A stretch of DNA of 9,589 nt from a virus (IMGVR_UViG_2563366982_000003); one strand, 5' to 3'; shown: positions 132-9,589, numbered from the stretch's first letter. Numbers and translations: made by a program. Notes: a model not told the origin generated them from the sequence alone.

Positions 132-203
132 TATGGCACCTGTGTTGTTCTGAGGTGAGCATATCACCTCTGTTCAGGTGGCCAAATTCAGTAAACCACT
201 TCA
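1..203 (-). mobile_element. IS3-family (IS911-like) insertion sequence, partial: left terminal repeat and 5' part of orfA; element continues beyond the window start
   Basis: Minus-strand sequence from 203 downward reads TGAAGTGGTTTACTGAATTTGGCCACCTGAACAGAGGTGATATGCTCACCTCAGAACAACACAGGTGCCATA-ATG, an IS3-family-type end (TG...) followed about 70 nt later by an ORF beginning [43 protein letters not shown], which I recognise as IS911 OrfA (HTH N-terminus). Boundary at 203 inferred from the TGAAGTGG terminus. Not checked against ISfinder. Confidence 0.75.
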
Positions 204-798
204 CACTGCACAGTGATGCTGTCCGGCGATCAATTATCTGGTGCAATACCACCTGCTCGTTTTTCGTCTCCCGCTGAACGCCTATTTCATCCAGGACCAG
301 CAAATCAACCCCGCAAAGCTCCTGTAAAAATTTTTCCCCGGATTTGCCGTTGTCGTAACTGTCATGCAACACGCTCATGACGTCAGACACGGTGACGATA
401 ATCACGCTGCGCCCCTTCACCATCAGCCGGTTGCCCATCGCCGCTGCAAGGTGATTTTTCCCGGTGCCGGTTTTACCGCTGAACACAAAATTCGTGCACC
501 CGGTCATCAGTTCGTCAGCTATGGATTTGGCCTGGCTCAGCGCGTATTTTTGCCCGTCGTTCTGCACCTGATAATTTGCAAACGAGCATTTGCTGTGCAG
601 AGGCTGGATGCCCGAACGATTCAGGATTTTTTCCACCCGCAACTGGCGATTCTGGCGGTTAATCTCCTCGCTGCGTTTTCGTCCTTCAGCAAGTTGCCAT
701 TCCCGCCACTCCTCCACCGTCCGGTACGGTGGAACCGACCCCTGTGGTGCAAGTCTGCGAATACGTTCAAGAACCCCAACTGCCGCAATGTTTTTCAT
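100..798 (-). CDS. DnaC-like replicative helicase loader (AAA+ ATPase); native reading frame ends near 204, the last ~35 codons (100-203) are IS-derived read-through, so the gene is 3'-truncated by the IS911-like insertion
   Basis: 232-aa ORF with Walker A ([15 protein letters not shown]) and Walker B (DLLVLDEIG) and a DnaC-like layout (...[17 protein letters not shown]...); SD-like GGGGGTG upstream of the ATG at 798; the C-terminal tail [15 protein letters not shown]... is encoded by the IS terminal repeat. DnaC homologs carry about 45 more residues after the DRR(S/T) motif. Confidence 0.75.
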
Positions 799-804
799 GA
801 CACG

Positions 805-1767
805 TCACCCCCTGAATCCCGGCGGTATTTCAGTGTCCGGTTCAGAAATGTGATTCACGCAACGCTGCGCAGGCGAACGCCCCAGGCGGATAACCAGTTC
901 ATCCCATTTTTCCCGGAGTTTTGCCGGACTCATGATGTTTTTTACCCAGAACGAATCCCGCTGGAGACGCCCAAACATTTCACAAATTTGTCTGTGAGTT
1001 CTGCCATCCAGCATCCGCATTGTGCGAACGTCATTGGCCCATGCTGTCCAGTTGGGTTCTTTCGGTCTAGTGATCTCGCCATCATAGCTGGCCGCCTGCT
1101 CGTAAAGACTCACGATTCGTCCCCAGATCCACTGTGCGCACACCAAATCTTCCTGACTTCCCCACTGGCGTTTTTTCGCACTGAACACAACCGCGTCAGG
1201 GTGTCGGGTTAAAAAATCCTGTTCAGCCGTCTGCGGGTCCGGTTGCGAAGCGTCCGGACAAGAAGATCTTTTATCTGACGGATCAGGTTTTAATACTGAC
1301 GGATCGGGGTCAATCATCGCCCCCCTAATCGGCAGTTTTTTATCAACAGTTGATCCATCAAAATTTGACGGGTCAACCGTTGAGGGGTCAATATTTGACG
1401 GGTCAACTGTTAACGGGTCATTTTTTGCCGGGCTAATTTTTCTTTTCGGTTTATATGACTCACGCGCCGCCGCCGCAGCTGCTTCGAGTTTTTCCACATT
1501 AAGCCGATAGATATTGCTTACATTACGCCCACCGACCTTACGCTCTTCCTTCGTCAGCCAGCCCTCTTTCGCCAGTTCTGCAATAGCCGATTTCACTGTG
1601 GATTCACTTCTTGCACCGATCTGACGCCGGATAGTTTCAATGGCAGGCCATGACACACCCTCGTCATTGCTGTAGTCTGCAAGACGGGCCATAACCGCCA
1701 CCCTGGATAAGATCATGCCGGTGAAGGCGCACCCTTCCCAGACAAGACCATGAAGCTTGCTGCTCAT
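805..1767 (-). CDS. Phage replication initiation protein (lambda O-like in function; N-terminal winged-HTH, internal iteron-encoded peptide repeats, C-terminal DnaT/YdaU-like domain)
   Basis: Long minus-strand ORF (track 805..1782, GTG start); I prefer the ATG at 1767, preceded by GGGGG. N-terminus LVWEGCAFTGMILSRVAVMARLADYSNDEGVSWPAIETIRRQIGARSESTVKSAIAELAKEGWL is typical of replication-initiator HTH domains. Internal DPSNIDPSTVDPSNFDGSTVD peptide repeat is encoded by DNA iterons. Stop lies 6 nt upstream of the dnaC-like ATG, the O-then-loader order of lambdoid replication modules. Confidence 0.7.
   Translation of the reverse strand: MSSKLHGLVWEGCAFTGMILSRVAVMARLADYSNDEGVSWPAIETIRRQIGARSESTVKSAIAELAKEGWLTKEERKVGGRNVSNIYRLNVEKLEAAAAAARESYKPKRKISPAKNDPLTVDPSNIDPSTVDPSNFDGSTVDKKLPIRGAMIDPDPSVLKPDPSDKRSSCPDASQPDPQTAEQDFLTRHPDAVVFSAKKRQWGSQEDLVCAQWIWGRIVSLYEQAASYDGEITRPKEPNWTAWANDVRTMRMLDGRTHRQICEMFGRLQRDSFWVKNIMSPAKLREKWDELVIRLGRSPAQRCVNHISEPDTEIPPGFRG
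1350..1439. repeat. Six tandem 15-bp iterons (consensus TTGAcGGGTCAAy-nn) inside the initiator gene: candidate phage origin of replication
   Basis: Plus-strand units: ttgatccatcaaaat / ttgacgggtcaaccg / ttgaggggtcaatat / ttgacgggtcaactg / ttaacgggtcatttt / ttgccgggctaattt (1350-1439). Each unit contains an internal dyad (TTGAC...GTCAA). Placement inside the initiator gene parallels the lambda ori iterons within O. Confidence 0.6.
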
Positions 1768-1789
1768 AAAACCCCCGAACACCGTGCTT

Positions 1790-2215
1790 TTAGTGCATCA
1801 CCACAGCATTCCCTGCCGGGCCGCCGCGATTCATCTGGTCATACAAAACAACCGCTGACGCAACAAAATCATCGACATCCTTCACCAGCCGATCCCTCCG
1901 TTCGACGATCTCACGGTAATATTCAGAACTGTGGCTGCGCATACGGGCCACCAGCAAAGGCGGCATCGCCTTTTCGATCGCCGGTAACAGAGCCTGCATT
2001 TTTTCAACAGCATCAGGGGTGTCTTTATCCAGCCAACGGAAAATTTTCTGGGTATTACGGGCCAGGGCTTCCGGATGGCTGTCGTCATACAGTTCCGGGA
2101 ACGTCATTCCCAGCTCGAAATACGCTTTGGTAATTTTCGCAGCCGGTACTTTTTCGCCGTCCGGATGCGCCCAGACATTCATCGCCATGCGGATGTGTTC
2201 ATGCTTGATTTTCAT
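1790..2215 (-). CDS. ydaT: YdaT-family protein (CII-like regulator / putative toxin family of Rac-type prophages)
   Basis: 141-aa ORF beginning MKIKHEHI..., matching my memory of the YdaT family N-terminus and size (~140 aa); start ATG overlaps the upstream gene stop (ATGA at 2212-2215), implying translational coupling with the ydaS-like gene. Confidence 0.65.
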   Translation of the reverse strand: MKIKHEHIRMAMNVWAHPDGEKVPAAKITKAYFELGMTFPELYDDSHPEALARNTQKIFRWLDKDTPDAVEKMQALLPAIEKAMPPLLVARMRSHSSEYYREIVERRDRLVKDVDDFVASAVVLYDQMNRGGPAGNAVVMH

Positions 2216-2514
2216 GAATCAACTCCATCAGATAAGCATGTACTACAATCACCTTCAGCATGAACTACATGTGTTTGCCCCAAACGAATGCCGCTCGCAT
2301 ACTCAGGCCAAATAAGCTCCCAATCATGGGGTCGTAGCTCCGCCCTACTTACTTGGCCTTCCGTCGCAGATTCGATCATAAGGGCGCGGGTTGGAGATAT
2401 AGCTGTTCGTCCAGACGCCATTTGCGATAAGTAAGATGGCGATACACCAAGTCTGGCCGCGAATTTCTTAGCATCACCAACCCTTAATGATTTAATAAAC
2501 TCTTTTAATGTCAT
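2212..2514 (-). CDS. ydaS: YdaS-like Cro-type HTH DNA-binding protein (Cro analogue of the switch)
   Basis: 100-aa ORF; HTH signature KKFAARLGVSPSYLSQMASGRTAISPTRALMIESATEGQVSRAELRP; SD GAGGAAGG 4-12 nt upstream of the ATG at 2514; divergent from the regulator gene at 2612. Confidence 0.7.
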   Translation of the reverse strand: MTLKEFIKSLRVGDAKKFAARLGVSPSYLSQMASGRTAISPTRALMIESATEGQVSRAELRPHDWELIWPEYASGIRLGQTHVVHAEGDCSTCLSDGVDS

Positions 2515-2611
2515 ACCTTCCTCGGTTTAGTGTTTTTTTGCGAGTTTAGTGTTTAATAAACCATTAAGTCAAGTATTTGCTTGTTTAGTGATTACTAAAG
2601 ATAATTACCAC
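2515..2611. promoter_or_regulatory. Divergent promoter/operator region between ydaS-like (minus) and paaR2-like (plus): repeated heptamers GTTTAGT/GTTTAAT and palindromes, candidate -35/-10 elements for both directions
   Basis: GTTTAGT at 2525-2531, 2544-2550, 2583-2589; GTTTAAT at 2551-2557 with complement AATAAAC at 2555-2561; perfect dyad TTTAGT-GATT-ACTAAA at 2584-2599. Candidate plus-strand promoter: -35 TTGCTT (2577-2582), 17-bp spacer, -10 GATAAT (2600-2605). Candidate minus-strand promoter: -35 TTGACT (complement of 2567-2572), -10 TAAACT (complement of 2543-2548). A further TTTAATAAAC copy lies at 2491-2500, inside the first codons of ydaS. Confidence 0.55.
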
Positions 2612-2983
2612 ATGCAAAAAAAAGAAATTCGCCGTTTACGTCTCAAGGAGTGGTTTAAAGATAAAACTCTGCCACCCAAAGAGAAGAGCTACCTATCTCA
2701 ACTAATGAGTGGGAGAGCCTCGTTTGGAGAAAAGGCTGCCAGAAGAATAGAGCAAACATACGGGATGCCGGAAGGGTATCTGGATGCGGAATACGCAGAA
2801 CAACCGGGGGTTTCTCCACCACATGCAGGGTTAACGTCTAATCAACTGGAATTATTGCAGATTTTTTCAGCCTTCCCTGAGGATGAGCAACGCCAGATAA
2901 TCAGCGAGTTAAAGCAGAAAAAAGAATCAATGGAAGATCTCATAGCGAGATGGATTGCGGCGCAAAAATGCCGCCGCGCCTGA
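2612..2983 (+). CDS. paaR2: HTH (XRE/cI-type) transcriptional regulator of the three-component ParE toxin-antitoxin module; occupies the cI position of the prophage switch (PaaR2-like)
   Basis: 123-aa ORF from ATG 2612 (the track's 2549 start is a GTG lying inside the operator repeats, with no SD); HTH region LSQLMSGRASFGEKAARRIEQTYGMPEGYLD; no peptidase S24 domain; directly upstream of the antitoxin/toxin pair. Symbol from memory of the E. coli O157:H7 paaR2-paaA2-parE2 system; the paralogous paaR1 module cannot be excluded without alignment. Confidence 0.6.
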   Translation: MQKKEIRRLRLKEWFKDKTLPPKEKSYLSQLMSGRASFGEKAARRIEQTYGMPEGYLDAEYAEQPGVSPPHAGLTSNQLELLQIFSAFPEDEQRQIISELKQKKESMEDLIARWIAAQKCRRA

Positions 2984-3003
2984 GTTATAAAACCGGAGGA
3001 AAC

Positions 3004-3195
3004 ATGAATAGAGCCCTTTCACCAATGGTTTCTGAATTTGAAACCATTGAACAAGAAAACAGTTACAACGAATGGCTGCGTGCGAAAGTAGCAACGAGCC
3101 TTGCAGATCCGCGCCCAGCAATTCCCCATGACGAAGTTGAGCGCAGAATGGCAGAACGCTTTGCTAAGATGCGTAAGGAACGGAGCAAGCAGTAA
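3004..3195 (+). CDS. paaA2: Small antitoxin of a ParE-family toxin (PaaA2-like, 63 aa)
   Basis: 63-aa ORF MNRALSPMVSEFETIEQENSYNEWLRAKVATSLADPRPAIPHDEVERRMAERFAKMRKERSKQ from ATG 3004 with SD GGAGGA at 2995-3000; stop TAA at 3193-3195, 1 nt before the toxin ATG. Size and operon position match the PaaA2 antitoxin as I recall it from the literature. Confidence 0.7.
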   Translation: MNRALSPMVSEFETIEQENSYNEWLRAKVATSLADPRPAIPHDEVERRMAERFAKMRKERSKQ

Positions 3196-3196
3196 A

Positions 3197-3475
3197 ATGT
3201 TACCCGTGTTATGGCTTGAAAGCGCAGATACCGACCTAGATGATATAACTAGTTATATTGCTCGTTTCGACATAGATGCGGCTGAACGCTTATGGCAGCG
3301 ATTAAGGGGTTGTGTGCTGCCGTTATCCGAACATCCGTATTTATACCCACCAAGCGACAGAGTACCTGGCTTGCGTGAGATTGTAGCCCACCCTAACTAT
3401 ATAATTCTATACCGCGTAACAACATCAAGCGTTGAAGTAGTAAACGTGATCCACGCAAGACGCCAGTTTCCCTAA
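3197..3475 (+). CDS. parE2: ParE/RelE-superfamily toxin (ParE2-like)
   Basis: 92-aa ORF from ATG 3197: MLPVLWLESADTDLDDITSYIARFDIDAAERLWQRLRGCVLPLSEHPYLYPPSDRVPGLREIVAHPNYIILYRVTTSSVEVVNVIHARRQFP, with the characteristic ParE C-terminal pattern (...YRV...V.V..H.RR..). The track's 3101 start overlaps the antitoxin and is rejected. Confidence 0.8.
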   Translation: MLPVLWLESADTDLDDITSYIARFDIDAAERLWQRLRGCVLPLSEHPYLYPPSDRVPGLREIVAHPNYIILYRVTTSSVEVVNVIHARRQFP

Positions 3476-3559
3476 CTTTCACTACCAATAGAAACATAAC
3501 AACCGCAACGACTTTATCAAAAGCGTTGTGTTTGTTATGCCCCGCGGTTTAGTTTTTAC

Positions 3560-3590
3560 TTGACTTAAGTTTAATGTTTATTAAACTAAA
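3560..3590 (+). promoter_or_regulatory. Candidate repressor-controlled promoter of the dicB-type operon: -35 TTGACT, operator palindrome GTTTAAT-GTTT-ATTAAAC, -10 TAAACT
   Basis: -35 TTGACT 3560-3565; 16-bp spacer; -10 TAAACT 3582-3587. A perfect 7-bp inverted repeat with 4-bp spacer (3569-3586) fills the spacer and -10 and is near-identical to AGTTTAGTGTTTAATAAAC at 2543-2561 in the divergent switch region. The stretch TTGACTTAA-GTTTA..TTAAAC is shared by both loci. Confidence 0.5.
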
Positions 3591-3766
3591 AATACCAACC
3601 CACCCCGCCCCACAGAACGCAGGGAAATACTTCGAGTTACCCGGCAGTGGTCAGGGGTTAAGTAGCCAGCCCGAGGCGTATGAACATGACGGCGGGAACA
3701 CTTTGTATAACAGCGCAGCAGGTTTTTTGTTCCGCTACCCCGGCGTTAAGGGGAAATGAGGTCAAC

Positions 3767-3919
3767 ATGGATACGCTCAATCTTGGCAACAACGAATCTC
3801 TGGTATGCGGTGTGTTCCCTAACCAGGACGGCACCTTCACCGCGATGACGTATACCAAAAGTAAAACGTTTAAAACCGCAGCTGGTGCGCATCGCTGGTT
3901 AGCAAGAAACACTGACTGA
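3767..3919 (+). CDS. ydfA: YdfA-like small prophage protein (first gene of the dicB-type operon)
   Basis: 50-aa ORF from ATG 3767 (MDTLNLGNNESLVCGVFPNQDGTFTAMTYTKSKTFKTAAGAHRWLARNTD) with SD GAGG at 3758-3761; the track's longer 3680 start lacks an SD. Size and position match Qin ydfA as I recall it. Confidence 0.6.
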   Translation: MDTLNLGNNESLVCGVFPNQDGTFTAMTYTKSKTFKTAAGAHRWLARNTD

Positions 3920-3930
3920 TGAGGTTGACG

Positions 3931-4269
3931 ATGGAATTTAAAGATTTACCTCCTTCAATCCAGGAGATTGCAGCACACACACTTCGTCATCGTCTGAACG
4001 AACTTGAATTGGAATCGGTAACAAAAAAAGACACTGATAATATGGCTCGCAATGTGCGCGATGCGTTTACTGGGCTGTTTTCAGATACAGCTTTAAATAT
4101 CCATGGCACAGAGGATACAGCAAAACAATTTGCAGAAAAAGAAGTGGAAGATCCCAGTTCAAAGAGCCAGAAACAGCCAAACAACCATGAAATTAACGAA
4201 CTGCTTCTGGCAACAGGCTTCATAAATATTAACGAATATGAACGCCGTAAAAAAATGTTATCTGATTAA
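3931..4269 (+). CDS. Hypothetical prophage protein of the dicB-type operon (possibly the intact counterpart of Qin ydfB plus ydfC)
   Basis: 112-aa ORF from ATG 3931 (MEFKDLPPSIQEIAAHTLRHRLNELELESV...) with SD GAGG 3921-3924; an alternative ATG at 3919 overlaps the ydfA-like stop. No recognisable domain; acidic/Lys-rich C-terminal half. Confidence 0.5.
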   Translation: MEFKDLPPSIQEIAAHTLRHRLNELELESVTKKDTDNMARNVRDAFTGLFSDTALNIHGTEDTAKQFAEKEVEDPSSKSQKQPNNHEINELLLATGFININEYERRKKMLSD

Positions 4270-4452
4270 TCCATCAAGATATCTTTTTAGCATCAGCGTT
4301 TCTACGTTATTAAAACCATCAGATTTTAACATAGCTTCGATTCGCTGATTTAAATTGCCAACTAACTGTTGATACTGAGTAGATGGAAGCATGTGTACCA
4401 GCTCCTTGAGAACACAATAACATGCACCAAGTTTTAACTCCTGCTCTGACAT
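4258..4452 (-). CDS. Candidate small protein gene (64 aa) antisense to the dicB-operon transcript, in the gap between the ydfB/C-like gene and DicF
   Basis: ATG at 4452-4450 preceded by a consensus SD (GGAGGA-taaa-ATG); translation MSEQELKLGACYCVLKELVHMLPSTQYQQLVGNLNQRIEAMLKSDGFNNVETLMLKRYLDGLIR; AT-rich codon usage (TTA, AGA, CTT). No plus-strand ORF of comparable quality exists between 4270 and 4790. No homolog recognised. Confidence 0.35.
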   Translation of the reverse strand: MSEQELKLGACYCVLKELVHMLPSTQYQQLVGNLNQRIEAMLKSDGFNNVETLMLKRYLDGLIR

Positions 4453-4791
4453 TTTATCCTCCATTGAGGTTACTGGTTGAGAATGGAAACCTCTCGTGAC
4501 AGCGTGTGGTCGTGCGCCGGACACGGATAAGAATCCGGCACTGACAGTTTACTGAAAGGATATTTCCCTGAAAAGTCAGACCATAACGCGAAAGCGTACG
4601 GCGAGGTAGCTGGTTCATAGATAGCCTGTCGTTAAATTTTCGTCGACCGTGCGCTTCCGGTTGTGGCAATCCGCGAAATGGCGCGGCGGTAAGTATGGCG
4701 GGGTTATTCCTTCCCCCGTTGAGGACACCGGGTTGTCAGGTTGACCATACGCTTAAGTGACAACCCCGCTGCAACGCCCTCTGTTATCAAT

Positions 4792-4848
4792 TTTCTGGTG
4801 ACGTTTGGCGGTATCAGTTTTACTCCGTGACTGCTCTGCCGCCCTTTT
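4792..4848 (+). ncRNA. dicF: DicF small regulatory RNA (ftsZ-targeting sRNA of Qin-type prophages), including its 3' stem and U-tract
   Basis: Sequence TTTCTGGTGACGTTTGGCGGTATCAGTTTTACTCCGTGACTGCTCUGCCGCCC + TTTTT matches my memory of the 53-nt DicF RNA; GGCGG (4807-4811) / CCGCC (4839-4843) pairing followed by a T-run gives a rho-independent 3' end; lies 180 nt upstream of the dicB ATG as in the Qin dicB operon. Exact 5' end not determinable from sequence. Confidence 0.75.
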
Positions 4849-5027
4849 TAAAGTGAATTTTGTGATGCGGTGAATGCGGCTGAGCGCACGCGGAACAGTT
4901 AAAGCAGTAAGGCGGTCTTTTACTGGCGTAACGAGCATCAACTAACCCGGCGTTAATTGTTAACTGGTTAACGTCACCTGGAGGCACCAGGCACTGCATC
5001 ACAAAATTCATTGTTGAGGACGCGATA

Positions 5028-5216
5028 ATGGAAACGTTATTACCAAACGTTAATACGTCTGAAGGTTGTTTTGATATTGGTGTTCTGCTCAGTAACCGGG
5101 AGTTTACTGAAGATGCCATTAATATGAGGAAATATGAGCCTTATCTGCTCAATGATAATTCCATACTTTCCCGAATTGCTCTTCTTGAACTTGGTATTTT
5201 CGGAGAGCGTCAATGA
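5028..5216 (+). CDS. dicB: Cell-division inhibitor DicB
   Basis: 62-aa ORF METLLPNVNTSEGCFDIGVLLSNREFTEDAINMRKYEPYLLNDNSILSRIALLELGIFGERQ; matches DicB in length and N-terminal sequence (M-TLLPNVNTSEGCF...) as recalled; SD GAGGA 5016-5020; follows DicF. Confidence 0.85.
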   Translation: METLLPNVNTSEGCFDIGVLLSNREFTEDAINMRKYEPYLLNDNSILSRIALLELGIFGERQ

Positions 5217-5401
5217 CTTCAGCATTTGCACTGATGATGACGGTTTTTCTTATAACGGGTGAATCACAGAATGTGATTACCGGAATTTATGCCAGTAAAG
5301 AATCCTGCCTCCAGGCAAGAGACGAGCAAAAAATTTCTGGTGAATGCCTCCCGGTAAAAAAAGTATCGCTGTACCTGAATAACGAAACACCGGCTGGATA
5401 A
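5213..5401 (+). CDS. ydfD: YdfD-like small membrane protein (Qin-type prophage lysis/toxicity protein)
   Basis: 62-aa ORF with start ATG overlapping the dicB stop (ATGA at 5213-5216); hydrophobic N-terminal segment FALMMTVFLITG, consistent with a single transmembrane helix; position matches ydfD after dicB. Confidence 0.7.
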   Translation: MTSAFALMMTVFLITGESQNVITGIYASKESCLQARDEQKISGECLPVKKVSLYLNNETPAG

Positions 5402-5493
5402 CCCTCCAGCCATATTAACACCATACCAACGGATTAAAAATGCCAGCAATGGCAGGGATTTGTTCACCCTTAAATCTGTAATGAGGTTTATCA

Positions 5494-6055
5494 ATGAGCA
5501 CTGATAAAGAAGAATTTGCGCTATATTGCGAAGCAAAAAATGACAAAGTCAGAAAACGTCTGGGAATTAAAGGTGGTTTTTACTGGACTACAGCAAAAAA
5601 ATTATCTGTTGCCATCTCCCGCTGCATTACCGCAATGGATGACAACGATTATGATGAAGACGACTTTAAAAAACCCGTTCGCGTCCATTTACCCGTTGTG
5701 AATGACCTTCCACCTGAAGGCGTGTTTGATACCGAATTCTGCAACCGATACGAAAAAGGCGGGGAAGATGGCATTACAATGGTATTTATCGCGCCCTCTC
5801 CCTCCGTGCAGGAGAAACCAGCCAGTACTGACAATACCAACGTCAACGGCGAAGACATGACGGAGATTGAGGAGAATATGCTCCTGCCGGTTTCTGGTCA
5901 GGAGCTGCCCATTCGCTGGCTTGCGCAACACAGCAGCGAAAAACCAGTAACGCACGTTGCACGGGAAGAACTTCAGGCATTACATATAGCACGGGCGGAA
6001 GAACTGCCGGCTGTTACTGCCCTGGCCATTTCTCACAAAACAAAGCTGCTCGACC
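5494..6055 (+). pseudogene. RecE-like (exodeoxyribonuclease VIII family) prophage exonuclease gene, N-terminal fragment, interrupted by an IS21-family insertion
   Basis: ORF from ATG 5494 (SD GAGG 5482-5485); the track ORF 5494..6105 reads 50 nt into the IS terminal repeat before a stop. Deleting 6056-8193 (IS plus one repeat copy) rejoins this frame exactly to the frame open from 8193 to the window end (...HKTKLLD|[24 protein letters not shown]...). Assignment to the RecE family is from recalled similarity of the N-terminal region and the synteny after dicB/ydfD. Confidence 0.6.
6049..6055. repeat. Left copy of the 7-bp direct repeat (CTCGACC) flanking the IS21-family element: putative target-site duplication
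   Basis: CTCGACC at 6049-6055 immediately before the IS terminus TGTCA; identical heptamer at 8187-8193 immediately after the other terminus. Confidence 0.55.
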
Positions 6056-6115
6056 TGTCAACGCCACGATGTTTGACCGTTATTTGCCATTTTCATGCCC
6101 GCTAAGATACTTTCG

Positions 6116-8085
<1,970 letters not shown>

Positions 8086-8186
8086 GTTGATGTCCTTTCT
8101 GGTGTGAGAACCTTAAGGAAACAACATGTTGGGTGGAGCGGACAATCCAAATGGTGAATTACCGTCTTATATCACTGGCGCTGACA

Positions 8187-8193
8187 CTCGACC
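8187..8193. repeat. Right copy of the 7-bp direct repeat (CTCGACC) flanking the IS21-family element
   Basis: See left copy; only removal of the IS plus exactly 7 bp restores the exonuclease reading frame. Confidence 0.55.
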
Positions 8194-9589
8194 CGCTGGA
8201 GATTCGCGACCTTCACAAACTGGTACGCGACACTGACAAAGTTTTCCCTAATCCCGGTAATTCAGACCTGGGACTGATAACTGCTTTTTTCGAGGCATAC
8301 CTGGACGCTGATTACACTGATCGGGGTCTGCTGACAAAAGAGTGGATGAAAGGAAATCGTGTTTCGCGTATCACCCGTACGGCTTCCGGTGCAAATGCCG
8401 GTGGCGGGAACAAAACCGATCGCAATCCGAATTTAGTACACACCTTCGATGCGCTGGATGTGGAGATTGCAGCAGCCACACTTCCGATGGATTTTAATAT
8501 TTATGAAATTCCGGGCAGCGTTTATCGTCGCGCAAAAGAAATCGTCCTGAAAAAAGAAAGTCCGTTCAGGGAATGGTCCGCAGCACTTCGCGCAACCCCT
8601 GGTATCCTGGACTATTCCCGCGCAGCTATTTTTGCACTTATCCGAAGCGCCCACCCTGAGTTTTATCACTACCCGGGGCGCCTTCAGGGGTATATCAATG
8701 CCAACCTGACAGAAACTGATCACGAGAATCCCACAGCTGAAACGCTCATGGCTGCCCGGCATACACCGGAAAAAGATATCCTGGAAGAAATTAACGGCGG
8801 ACTGGCTGCTGAGTGCAAAACAGAAGAAGAAAAAAATGATGAAGATAACCCGCAACCATCTGGCGCAATGGCAGATGAACAGGCAACGGCTGAAACAATG
8901 GCAGCGGATACAGTTGAACATCATCAGGACCCGCAGCCGCTGGATGACAAGTCACAGGTAAAAGTTACCGCTGACGAAGTAAACAAAATTATGCAGGCAG
9001 CCAATATCAGCCAGCCTGACGCCGATAAGTTGCTTGCTGCCTCTCGCGGAGAATTTGTTGCAGGGATTAGCGACCCGAATGATCCGAAATGGGTAAAGGG
9101 GATTGAAACCCGCGATTCTGTAAACCAGAACCAGCAAGAATCGGAACAGAACGACCAGAAAGCGGAACAAAACAGCCCAAATGCGTTACAAAACGAGCCA
9201 GAAACGAAACAACCTGAACCAGTAGTGCAACAGGAACCGGAAAAGATCTGCACCGCCTGCGGTCAGACCGGCGGCGGCAACTGCCCTGATTGTGGCGCGG
9301 TGATGGGCGACGCAACATACCAGGAAACATTCGATGAAGAGAATCAGGTTGAAGTTCAGGAAAATGATCCGAAGGAAATGGAAGGCGCTGAACATCCACA
9401 CAAGGAGAATGCTGGCAGCGCTCAGGATCACGCCAGCGATAGTGAAACTGGCGAGACGGCAGATCCCTTAATTACGGTGAACGGTCATCATGTTATCACA
9501 TCCACCAGCAGGACGTGTGACCATCTAATGATCGACCTTGAAACCATGGGAAAAAATCCTGATGCCCCGATCATCTCAATAGGTGCAAT
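8187..9589 (+). pseudogene. RecE-like prophage exonuclease gene, C-terminal continuation after the IS21 insertion (open to the window end): Q/E-rich low-complexity linker, CxxC-x10-CxxC zinc-ribbon motif, start of a DEDD (DnaQ-like) 3'-5' exonuclease motif
   Basis: One frame is stop-free from 8091 to 9589 and is absent from the ORF track because it has no stop in the window. Translation ...[51 protein letters not shown]...; acidic/Gln-rich segment about 9100-9240; [16 protein letters not shown] at 9249-9296; [10 protein letters not shown] (Exo I-like D-x-E) at 9522-9551. All minus-strand ORFs listed for 8433-9431 are antisense to this frame. Confidence 0.6.

Follow-up and report, generated by a model that had tools for sequence, protein, structure and literature searches.

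The DNA analysed here, called ‘the window’ below, is a viral stretch of 9,589 nucleotides (nt) (IMGVR_UViG_2563366982_000003). Positions 3560–5401 very probably belong to a defective lambdoid prophage of the Rac/Qin/CP-933P type and represent that part of its early-left (PL) operon which lies nearest the promoter; the immunity region is of the CP-933P/Sp12 type found in Escherichia coli O157:H7. Behind the promoter PL933P this operon carries the small RNA (sRNA) DicF, the division-inhibitor gene dicB and a ydfD-like gene. Both the kind of operon and its promoter are already known: DicF and DicB behind a CI/Cro-type switch are textbook matter for Qin, the prophage of E. coli K-12. The one item that deserves further work is the leader RNA with which the PL transcript would begin. 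The operon, as far as it concerns us, is made up as follows (ORF, open reading frame; aa, amino acids).

3547–3587, + strand: promoter PL933P with left operators (OL); –35 TTGACT at 3560–3565, –10 TAAACT at 3582–3587, 16-nt spacer; operator sites at 3569–3586 (full) and 3547–3564 (weaker)
3594–3757, + strand: structured 5' leader RNA, ~160 nt; core 3598–3696, 3' hairpin ~3729–3757
3767–3919, + strand: ydfA-like gene (DUF1391), first in the operon
3931–4269, + strand: truncated phage gene (ORF 3919/3931–4269)
4258–4452, – strand: phrog_4987 gene, complete, 64 aa, of unknown function, antisense within the PL operon
4511–4792, + strand: DicF precursor region
4793–4849, + strand: DicF sRNA (4793–4844) and the U-run of its terminator (UUUUU, 4845–4849)
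5028–5216, + strand: dicB, a divergent allele
5213–5401, + strand: ydfD-like gene (DUF1482)

These assignments follow directly from comparison with known families and relatives. DicF had been predicted at ~4792–4848, and an Rfam scan places RF00039 at 4793–4844, over the full model (1–52), with 76.7 bits, the gathering score being 48 (E = 5e-16). DicF is annotated with 53 nt in K-12; the 52 that the model covers do not vary among the window, K-12 Qin, phage Tritos and a prophage of O157, and the identity to K-12 takes in the ftsZ-pairing 3' part and the terminator. Conservation extends upstream: 4511–5132 is 92% identical to Qin, the 150 nt ahead of DicF are ~99% identical, and the precursor region folds with a z-score of –2.9. 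In K-12, DicF is released from a polycistronic RNA by RNase III, as a 190-nt form, and by RNase E, as the 53-nt form. Here, too, it lies within an operon, upstream of dicB and with its precursor conserved, and the processing known from K-12 would, by analogy between near-identical DNAs, apply to it as well.

The product of 5028–5216 is DicB, as the original prediction had it: residues 1–62 match positions 1–62 of the Pfam profile DicB (PF05358) with 125.5 bits, and the protein is 63% identical to K-12 DicB, with a C-terminal half unlike those of both K-12 and Sp12. Homology to Qin breaks at 5132, around codon 35 of dicB, at a recombination breakpoint, and the divergent stretch runs on to 5439. 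Because the break lies inside dicB, the C-terminus of dicB and the whole of ydfD belong to a different allele. This allele occurs in 854 of the 5426 complete E. coli genomes of the collection and in the PPompW phages of O157, and it is kept at an identity of at least 99% in 605 records. Judged by sequence, the DicB that it encodes may work like that of K-12, which inhibits division via MinC. The second gene of the allele, 5213–5401, was also called correctly: its product, of ~62 aa with the hydrophobic N-terminus MTSAFALMMTVFLITG, matches the DUF1482 profile (PF07358, 56.3 bits), is 45% identical to K-12 YdfD, and shares with dicB the 4-nt overlap, ATGA, also seen in K-12. Past the DicF terminator and ahead of dicB, a block of ~45 nt (4905–4947) has been replaced by other sequence, compared with K-12, O157 and Tritos, with flanks that are nearly invariant.

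Farther upstream the picture is more mixed. The ydfA-like gene in first position matches the DUF1391 profile (PF07151, 101.7 bits) and encodes a protein 84% identical to K-12 YdfA, as expected. The gene after it, announced as ‘ydfB/C-like’, is something else, instead: BLASTP of the 116-aa ORF against YdfB and YdfC gives no match, and the ORF corresponds to the N-terminal half of phrog_2151 (positions 1–101 of 212) and is annotated in RefSeq as a partial pseudogene. The phrog_4987 gene (WP_001295058.1 in E. coli ATCC 25922) is convergent with it, the two ends overlapping by 12 nt. DNA homology to Qin is confined to three blocks, 3729–3910, 4511–5132 and 5440–5488, and the interior of the operon is therefore a mosaic replacement.

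The promoter at the head of the operon stands next to an immunity region.

1790–2215, – strand: ydaT, the CII analogue of CP-933P (phrog_163, CII-like activator, E = 3e-47)
2212–2514, – strand: ydaS, the Cro analogue (Pfam YdaS_toxin and HTH_3; one mismatch in 303 nt against O157)
2515–2611, between the divergent genes: switch region of 97 bp with promoters PR933P and PRM933P, operators at 2544–2561 and 2583–2600, and a half-site at 2525
2612–2983, + strand: paaR2, the CI-analogue repressor, leaderless
3004–3195, + strand: paaA2 antitoxin (Pfam PaaA2, PF21217, 70.7 bits; 100% identical to the O157 protein)
3197–3475, + strand: parE2 toxin (Pfam ParE_toxin; identical in all 92 residues to O157:H7 ParE2, PDB 5cw7)
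3495–3539, + strand: long hairpin between parE2 and PL

The order paaR2-paaA2-parE2 (together RAE2), divergent from ydaS-ydaT across a 97-bp operator region, is that of the CP-933P immunity region, and the 97 bp are identical to those of an O157:H7 genome. PaaR2 is 99% identical to the O157 protein; its residues 1–66 are identical to the N-terminal domain in PDB 7nkv, and its residues 56–119 are 30% identical to DicA, the repressor of Qin. The Cro-like role of YdaS has been described (PMC8630535); YdaT is labelled ‘toxin YdaT family’ in RefSeq. The EDL933 primers of the same study that fall between 1768 and 3593, those for ydaT included, all match the window exactly. The hairpin at 3495–3539 is a near-perfect 21-nt inverted repeat (–21.3 kcal/mol, z = –3.8; no shuffle out of 200 reached this stability). 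With no U-tract adjoining it, it does not qualify as a canonical intrinsic terminator, but its position is such that it may terminate the repressor operon, or insulate it from the PL operon.

The intergenic region has been footprinted with PaaR2 and YdaS, and contains 18-bp palindromes with the half-site GTTTAGTAA (PMC8630535, Jurenas et al. 2021). On the minus strand, a promoter scan finds PR933P there (TTGACT at 2572–2567, TAAACT at 2548–2543). According to the same paper, PL933P lies beyond parE2, has the same –35 and –10 elements as PR, and carries operators OL1 to OL3. In the window its –35 begins 85 nt past the parE2 stop codon (3475), and the 18-bp palindrome GTTTAATGTTTATTAAAC at 3569–3586 sits within the promoter spacer. 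The motif GTTTARTN6TAAAS, with at most one mismatch and on both strands, has seven matches where 0.09 are expected, a number reached by none of 200 shuffles; these represent three distinct operator sites (2544–2561, 2583–2600 and 3569–3586) and an overlapping one-mismatch match at 2551–2568. All seven GTTTART half-sites of the window lie within the two control regions. Primers F-PL (3476–3496) and R-PL (3572–3593) match exactly, so the published PL fragment corresponds to 3476–3593; against O157 it differs only at 3540 and 3547, and the –35, the spacer operator and the –10 are identical. In gfp fusions, the EDL933 fragment is repressed ~100-fold by PaaR2 and likewise by YdaS (PMC8630535), and the near-identical fragment of the window should behave in the same way. 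The claim that the cassette stands behind parE and is governed by a promoter with the operator of the switch was thus right: the operators are shared, the primers map exactly, and the operator statistics agree.

From these pieces a plausible course of events can be put together. PaaR2, and YdaS also, bound to the palindromes at PR/PRM and in the PL spacer, would keep PL off. When repression lapsed, a transcript would begin near 3594 and cross the structured leader, ydfA, the truncated gene and the antisense of the small gene before it reached the DicF precursor. RNase III and RNase E would then free the 53-nt DicF to block the translation of ftsZ, among other targets, and read-through past the DicF terminator would supply DicB, to inhibit division via MinC, and the YdfD-family membrane protein. 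PL transcripts would formerly have run on into recE-xis-int. From their arrangement, it seems likely that dicF and dicB are driven by PL in this strain.

The prophage around the operon is damaged at two places, both by insertion sequence (IS) elements.

1–202: terminal part of an IS3-family element, with the beginning of a transposase orfA read on the – strand from ~131
5494–6055, + strand: 5' part of recE (exonuclease VIII; Pfam Exonuc_VIII), which resumes at 8187
6056–8186: IS21-family element inside recE, with istA (6913–8085) and istB (6116–6916) both on the – strand and a 7-bp target duplication

The window corresponds to a lambdoid prophage that adjoins potC in ATCC 25922 and its relatives, with 99.98–100% identity over 203–6055 and 8187–9589; no single genome in the collection contains the whole of it. 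ATCC 25922 lacks the IS21-family element, and its recE is intact (2439 nt). The IS3-family element, the other notable difference from ATCC 25922, truncates a dnaC-like replication gene (100–798), the profile match to which stops at position 212 of 248. The prophage has probably lost replication, and recombination through RecE; the truncation of the dnaC-like gene fits its earlier description as ‘replication-dead’. The immunity region and the cassette are intact in spite of both insertions.

What purpose this arrangement might serve is a harder question. The original prediction was that derepression would release in one step a ParE-family toxin balance, DicF, DicB and YdfD, and that this coupling of growth-arrest functions to one operator could keep a dead prophage in the genome. 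Its functional interpretation is partly supported. That toxic genes under a repressor make a prophage hard to lose is an old idea for dicA/dicB, and it has been proposed explicitly for RAE2. The same operator does occur at both control regions, and the cassette does lie under it; loss of DicA in K-12 leads to filamentation that depends on DicB and DicF; RAE2 stabilises an unstable plasmid through post-segregational killing, and its authors proposed that it limits rearrangement of the immunity region; and that region and the cassette have outlasted the insertions into the dnaC-like gene and recE. Three published results, on the other hand, speak against the one-step release. parE2 is co-transcribed with the repressor from PRM, outside the PL operon, and since it belongs to the repressor operon, the notion that ‘one operator releases all’ mixes two transcription units that are regulated in opposite ways. 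paaA2-parE2 is transcribed in both states of the switch, with no difference in SOS-positive cells (0.876% versus 0.953%), and ParE2 takes effect only once the locus is lost (Jurenas et al. 2021, PMC8630535). YdaS represses PL as strongly as PaaR2 does, and therefore the anti-immune state need not express DicF or DicB at all.

Nor are the two modules constant companions. RAE2 is present in 595 genomes, the exact arrangement of the window in 87. In phage Evi, PaaR2, PaaA2, ParE2, PL and the leader are followed by a kil module in place of dicF-dicB, and in O157 by other interiors; dicF-dicB, for its part, is found with no toxin-antitoxin pair behind DicA-type or CI-type repressors in Qin, Tritos and phage 640R1. 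Since RAE2 and dicF-dicB occur apart, their coupling is better described as modular shuffling than as a co-adapted unit, and we consider it doubtful that a multi-toxin addiction device, with a single derepression both freeing ParE2 and switching on DicF, DicB and YdfD, is what retains this prophage. The parE2 ORF of Evi (2158–2433 of the Evi stretch) is intact and 100% identical to that of the window, although it is unannotated in the deposited record; an isolated temperate phage therefore has the full paaR2-paaA2-parE2 module.

If PL is the promoter of the whole cassette, transcription has a long way to go, and several points weigh against our main reading. In K-12 the full-length species ydfABC-dicFB-ydfDE was not detected, and in the window, as there, DicF's own terminator stands between PL and dicB. 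The mosaic interior, with its truncated ORF and convergent minus-strand gene, could hamper read-through. The difference from O157 at 3547 falls in the weaker OL site, and the DicB allele, only 63% identical to the characterised protein and divergent in its C-terminal half, might not act as that protein does. One could suppose, instead, that an internal promoter, independent of PL and the switch, accounts for most of the expression of dicF and dicB, with the operator-bearing promoter in control of ydfA and the leader only. One older K-12 study is cited as having suggested a promoter upstream of dicB; the foreign DNA that replaced 3911–4510 could have brought one in; and in K-12, DicF accumulates in stationary phase despite DicA. 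But primer extension and reverse-transcription PCR in K-12 revealed continuous transcripts from ydfA to dicF, issuing from the promoter dicBp, and no internal promoter, and the 280 nt upstream of DicF are conserved at 92–99%, as a processing substrate. A consensus scan found no sigma-70-like promoter on the + strand in 3588–5400, which is weak evidence, the scan being crude; it likewise found no terminator-like site on that strand before 5441, and in doing so missed the DicF terminator itself. Taken together, these observations make an internal promoter quite improbable, and we return to PL as the likely source of the cassette's transcripts. It is very improbable that the cassette is merely decaying and serves no present function in this strain. 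The ORF at 3931–4269 is truncated, IS elements have cut recE and the dnaC-like gene, and the prophage can probably neither replicate nor recombine through RecE. But DicF is 100% and its precursor ~99% conserved, the ORFs of dicB, ydfD and ydfA are unbroken and match their families over the full length, the dicB/ydfD allele has been kept nearly uniform among its many records, and promoter and operators are intact.

Among the closest known systems is the dicBF operon of Qin (dicA/dicC switch, dicBp, ydfABC-dicF-dicB-ydfDE). The two operons agree in order at both ends, from ydfA at the one to DicF, dicB, ydfD and recE/ydfE at the other; in both, DicF is the same, its precursor nearly so, dicB and ydfD overlap at ATGA, and the promoter lies just past the repressor-side genes under the control of a CI/Cro-like pair. 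They differ in the repressor, which is DicA in Qin and PaaR2 in the window (the 30% identity of the two being confined to the C-terminal part); in the presence of paaA2-parE2 between repressor gene and promoter; in the replacement of ydfB and ydfC by unrelated DNA; in the divergence of DicB and YdfD; and in the leader, of which Qin retains the end without the core.

Another is the immunity region of CP-933P/Sp12 of O157:H7, in which ParE2 and PaaA2 (100%), PaaR2 (99%), the OR region and the core of PL are the same or nearly the same. An O157 Sp12-type locus reads RAE2, PL, leader, ydfC, DicF, dicB, DUF1482 gene and recE, in the order of the window, and the linkage of dicF-dicB to PL933P is therefore not new. 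The sequences diverge after ~3756: O157 continues with a 118-aa ORF, the zinc-protein gene ECs_2282 and a true ydfC, where the window has ydfA, the truncated gene and the minus-strand gene, and the dicB/ydfD alleles are different. Jurenas et al. (2021) mention division-inhibitor genes, kil and/or dicB, on the PL side, but the ORFs immediately past PL are given no function, and the plasmid constructs end before dicF (PMC8630535). PL933P was cloned in 2021, and its repression by PaaR2 and by YdaS was demonstrated then; our finding of the cassette adds little. It does place PL933P at the head of a dicF-dicB operon, where the ORFs had been left without a function, and it would give the bistable CP-933P switch a concrete phenotype: filamentation, and ManXYZ-dependent phage resistance.

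The general plan is that of lambda. In lambda, rexAB lies next to cI in the repressor operon, and OL/PL and the early-left operon that bears kil come next. The window follows suit: a repressor operon with accessory genes (parE2 occupying the position of rexAB) ends just before a divergently placed OL/PL, whose operators are shared with OR as in lambda-type control regions, and the early-left operon combines division inhibitor and recombination functions, followed by xis and int. Unlike lambda, the E. coli-type copies lack both an N gene and the boxA/boxB of a nutL site, PaaR2 is reported to have no autocleavage domain, and the division inhibitor, Kil in lambda, is replaced by DicF plus DicB. 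The early-left operon of the K-12 prophage Rac (racR, leader, ydaG-ydaF, KilS sRNA, kilR, ydaE, racC, recET) resembles that of the window in its leader, in a DUF1391 gene, and in an sRNA gene just upstream of a division inhibitor, with recE beyond. Rac differs in having RacR as repressor, KilS and KilR in place of DicF and DicB, and sieB inserted on the opposite strand. Tritos and 640R1, like Rac, share the layout of the window but have other repressors. KilS is annotated just upstream of kilR (6406–6503 of the Rac stretch), the position that DicF occupies relative to dicB. It may be a general rule in these operons that an sRNA and its terminator come ahead of the gene for the division inhibitor.

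This brings us to the leader, the part that could matter, for it lies where lambda has nutL and phage HK022 has putL. Its core is an extended hairpin, with helices H0 to H3 and the cap CAAUACNNCGAGUUA, followed by the stretch UAAGUAGCCAGCCYGAGGCRUAYGAACAUGAMGGC. It is conserved in 3459 of the 5426 E. coli genomes (about two-thirds) and in several coliphages; a copy in an Actinobacillus phage is ~75–80% identical, and the core recurs in prophages of Arsenophonus, Phlomobacter, Serratia and Superficieibacter. Its position is constant: it heads the early-left operon, just past the repressor gene, whatever the type of the latter. In Rac it lies between racR and ydaG and scores 124 bits with our covariance model of the leader (R1, seeded from E. 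coli-type copies); in Qin, only the last ~45 nt are kept and the core has been lost. Each prophage has one copy, and we found no second, in the PR operon for example.

The evidence that the leader is a structured RNA comes from independent folds and from covariation. When divergent copies were folded independently, they gave the same extended hairpin with different stem sequences and the cap CAAUACNNCGAGUUA. In the alignment of the 36 copies found with R1, 86.9% of cells pair, versus 31–47% in slid controls; both partners change in 14 of 20 pairs; and the covariation score is 0.304, versus at most 0.093 in slid controls. None of 500 shuffles reaches the observed value in four of the five measures. 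These figures are to be read with the caveat that the alignment was fitted to the covariance model itself, and the invariance of the central block stems in part from how the copies were found, because that block was the search pattern. The covariation spans four bacterial families. The structure emerged only from the independent folds and the model-based alignment. RNAalifold on plain MAFFT alignments of the leader gave no structure, the variable stems being mis-registered, and unusual thermodynamic stability of a single leader sequence was not supported (z = +0.58). Rfam holds no family for it, permissive thresholds yielding only a chance match, and a full-text literature search with the core sequence returned nothing relevant.

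Several known identities were tried and set aside. A coding region is ruled out by 1-nt indels between copies, and the only ORF starts upstream of the start of transcription. The anti-sRNAs AgvB and AsxR sit at the PR' moron site, and the leader is not one of these. As a nutL site it fails, for there is no boxA above chance and no N-like ORF in the window. HK022 put is closer in kind: putL, too, lies directly past PL, where the early-left transcript has its 5' end, is a structured RNA, and belongs to a phage with no N gene. But homology to the leader is not detectable (R1 scores 6.7 bits on putL), there is no putR-like partner, the leader consists of one long hairpin with conserved single-stranded blocks where putL consists of two stem-loops of ~70 nt, and in Arsenophonus a nut site and an N-like gene accompany the leader core. 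In those prophages (4376–5007 of L025; 1209–1360 of L013), a perfect boxA, CGCUCUUUAAC, comes after the core, then a boxB-like hairpin (UCGCU-GAAAA-AGCGA or variants), and then a gene with a lambda-N-like arginine-rich motif, KSRRRAKQMAFWDRKRAKYEAK, which amounts to a nutL-N system such as the E. coli-type copies do not have. The leader core is therefore common to phages that use N and phages that do not.

Candidate functions for the leader include an elongation element directed at RNA polymerase or Rho, a 5' stabiliser, and a processed sRNA. Our own suggestion, which is tentative and may well prove wrong, is that it represents an undescribed but widespread class of structured cis-acting RNA in lambdoid early-left operons, whose target would be Rho or the polymerase during elongation; it would serve as a processive antiterminator in the manner of put, or mask a C-rich rut site, and so set the passage of transcription through the DicF or KilS terminator. 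Were this true, the level of host division inhibition, through the expression of dicB or kilR, ydfD and recE, would be set by the leader RNA as well as by the repressor, and Qin of K-12, the model system for dicBF, would turn out to have lost the element. Tritos and phage 666R9 have operator-like repeats (AAAGTAC...) that resemble those of HK022 PL (6310–6400 of the HK022 stretch, – strand), but with the leader present in place of putL. Immunity type and leader type thus assort independently.

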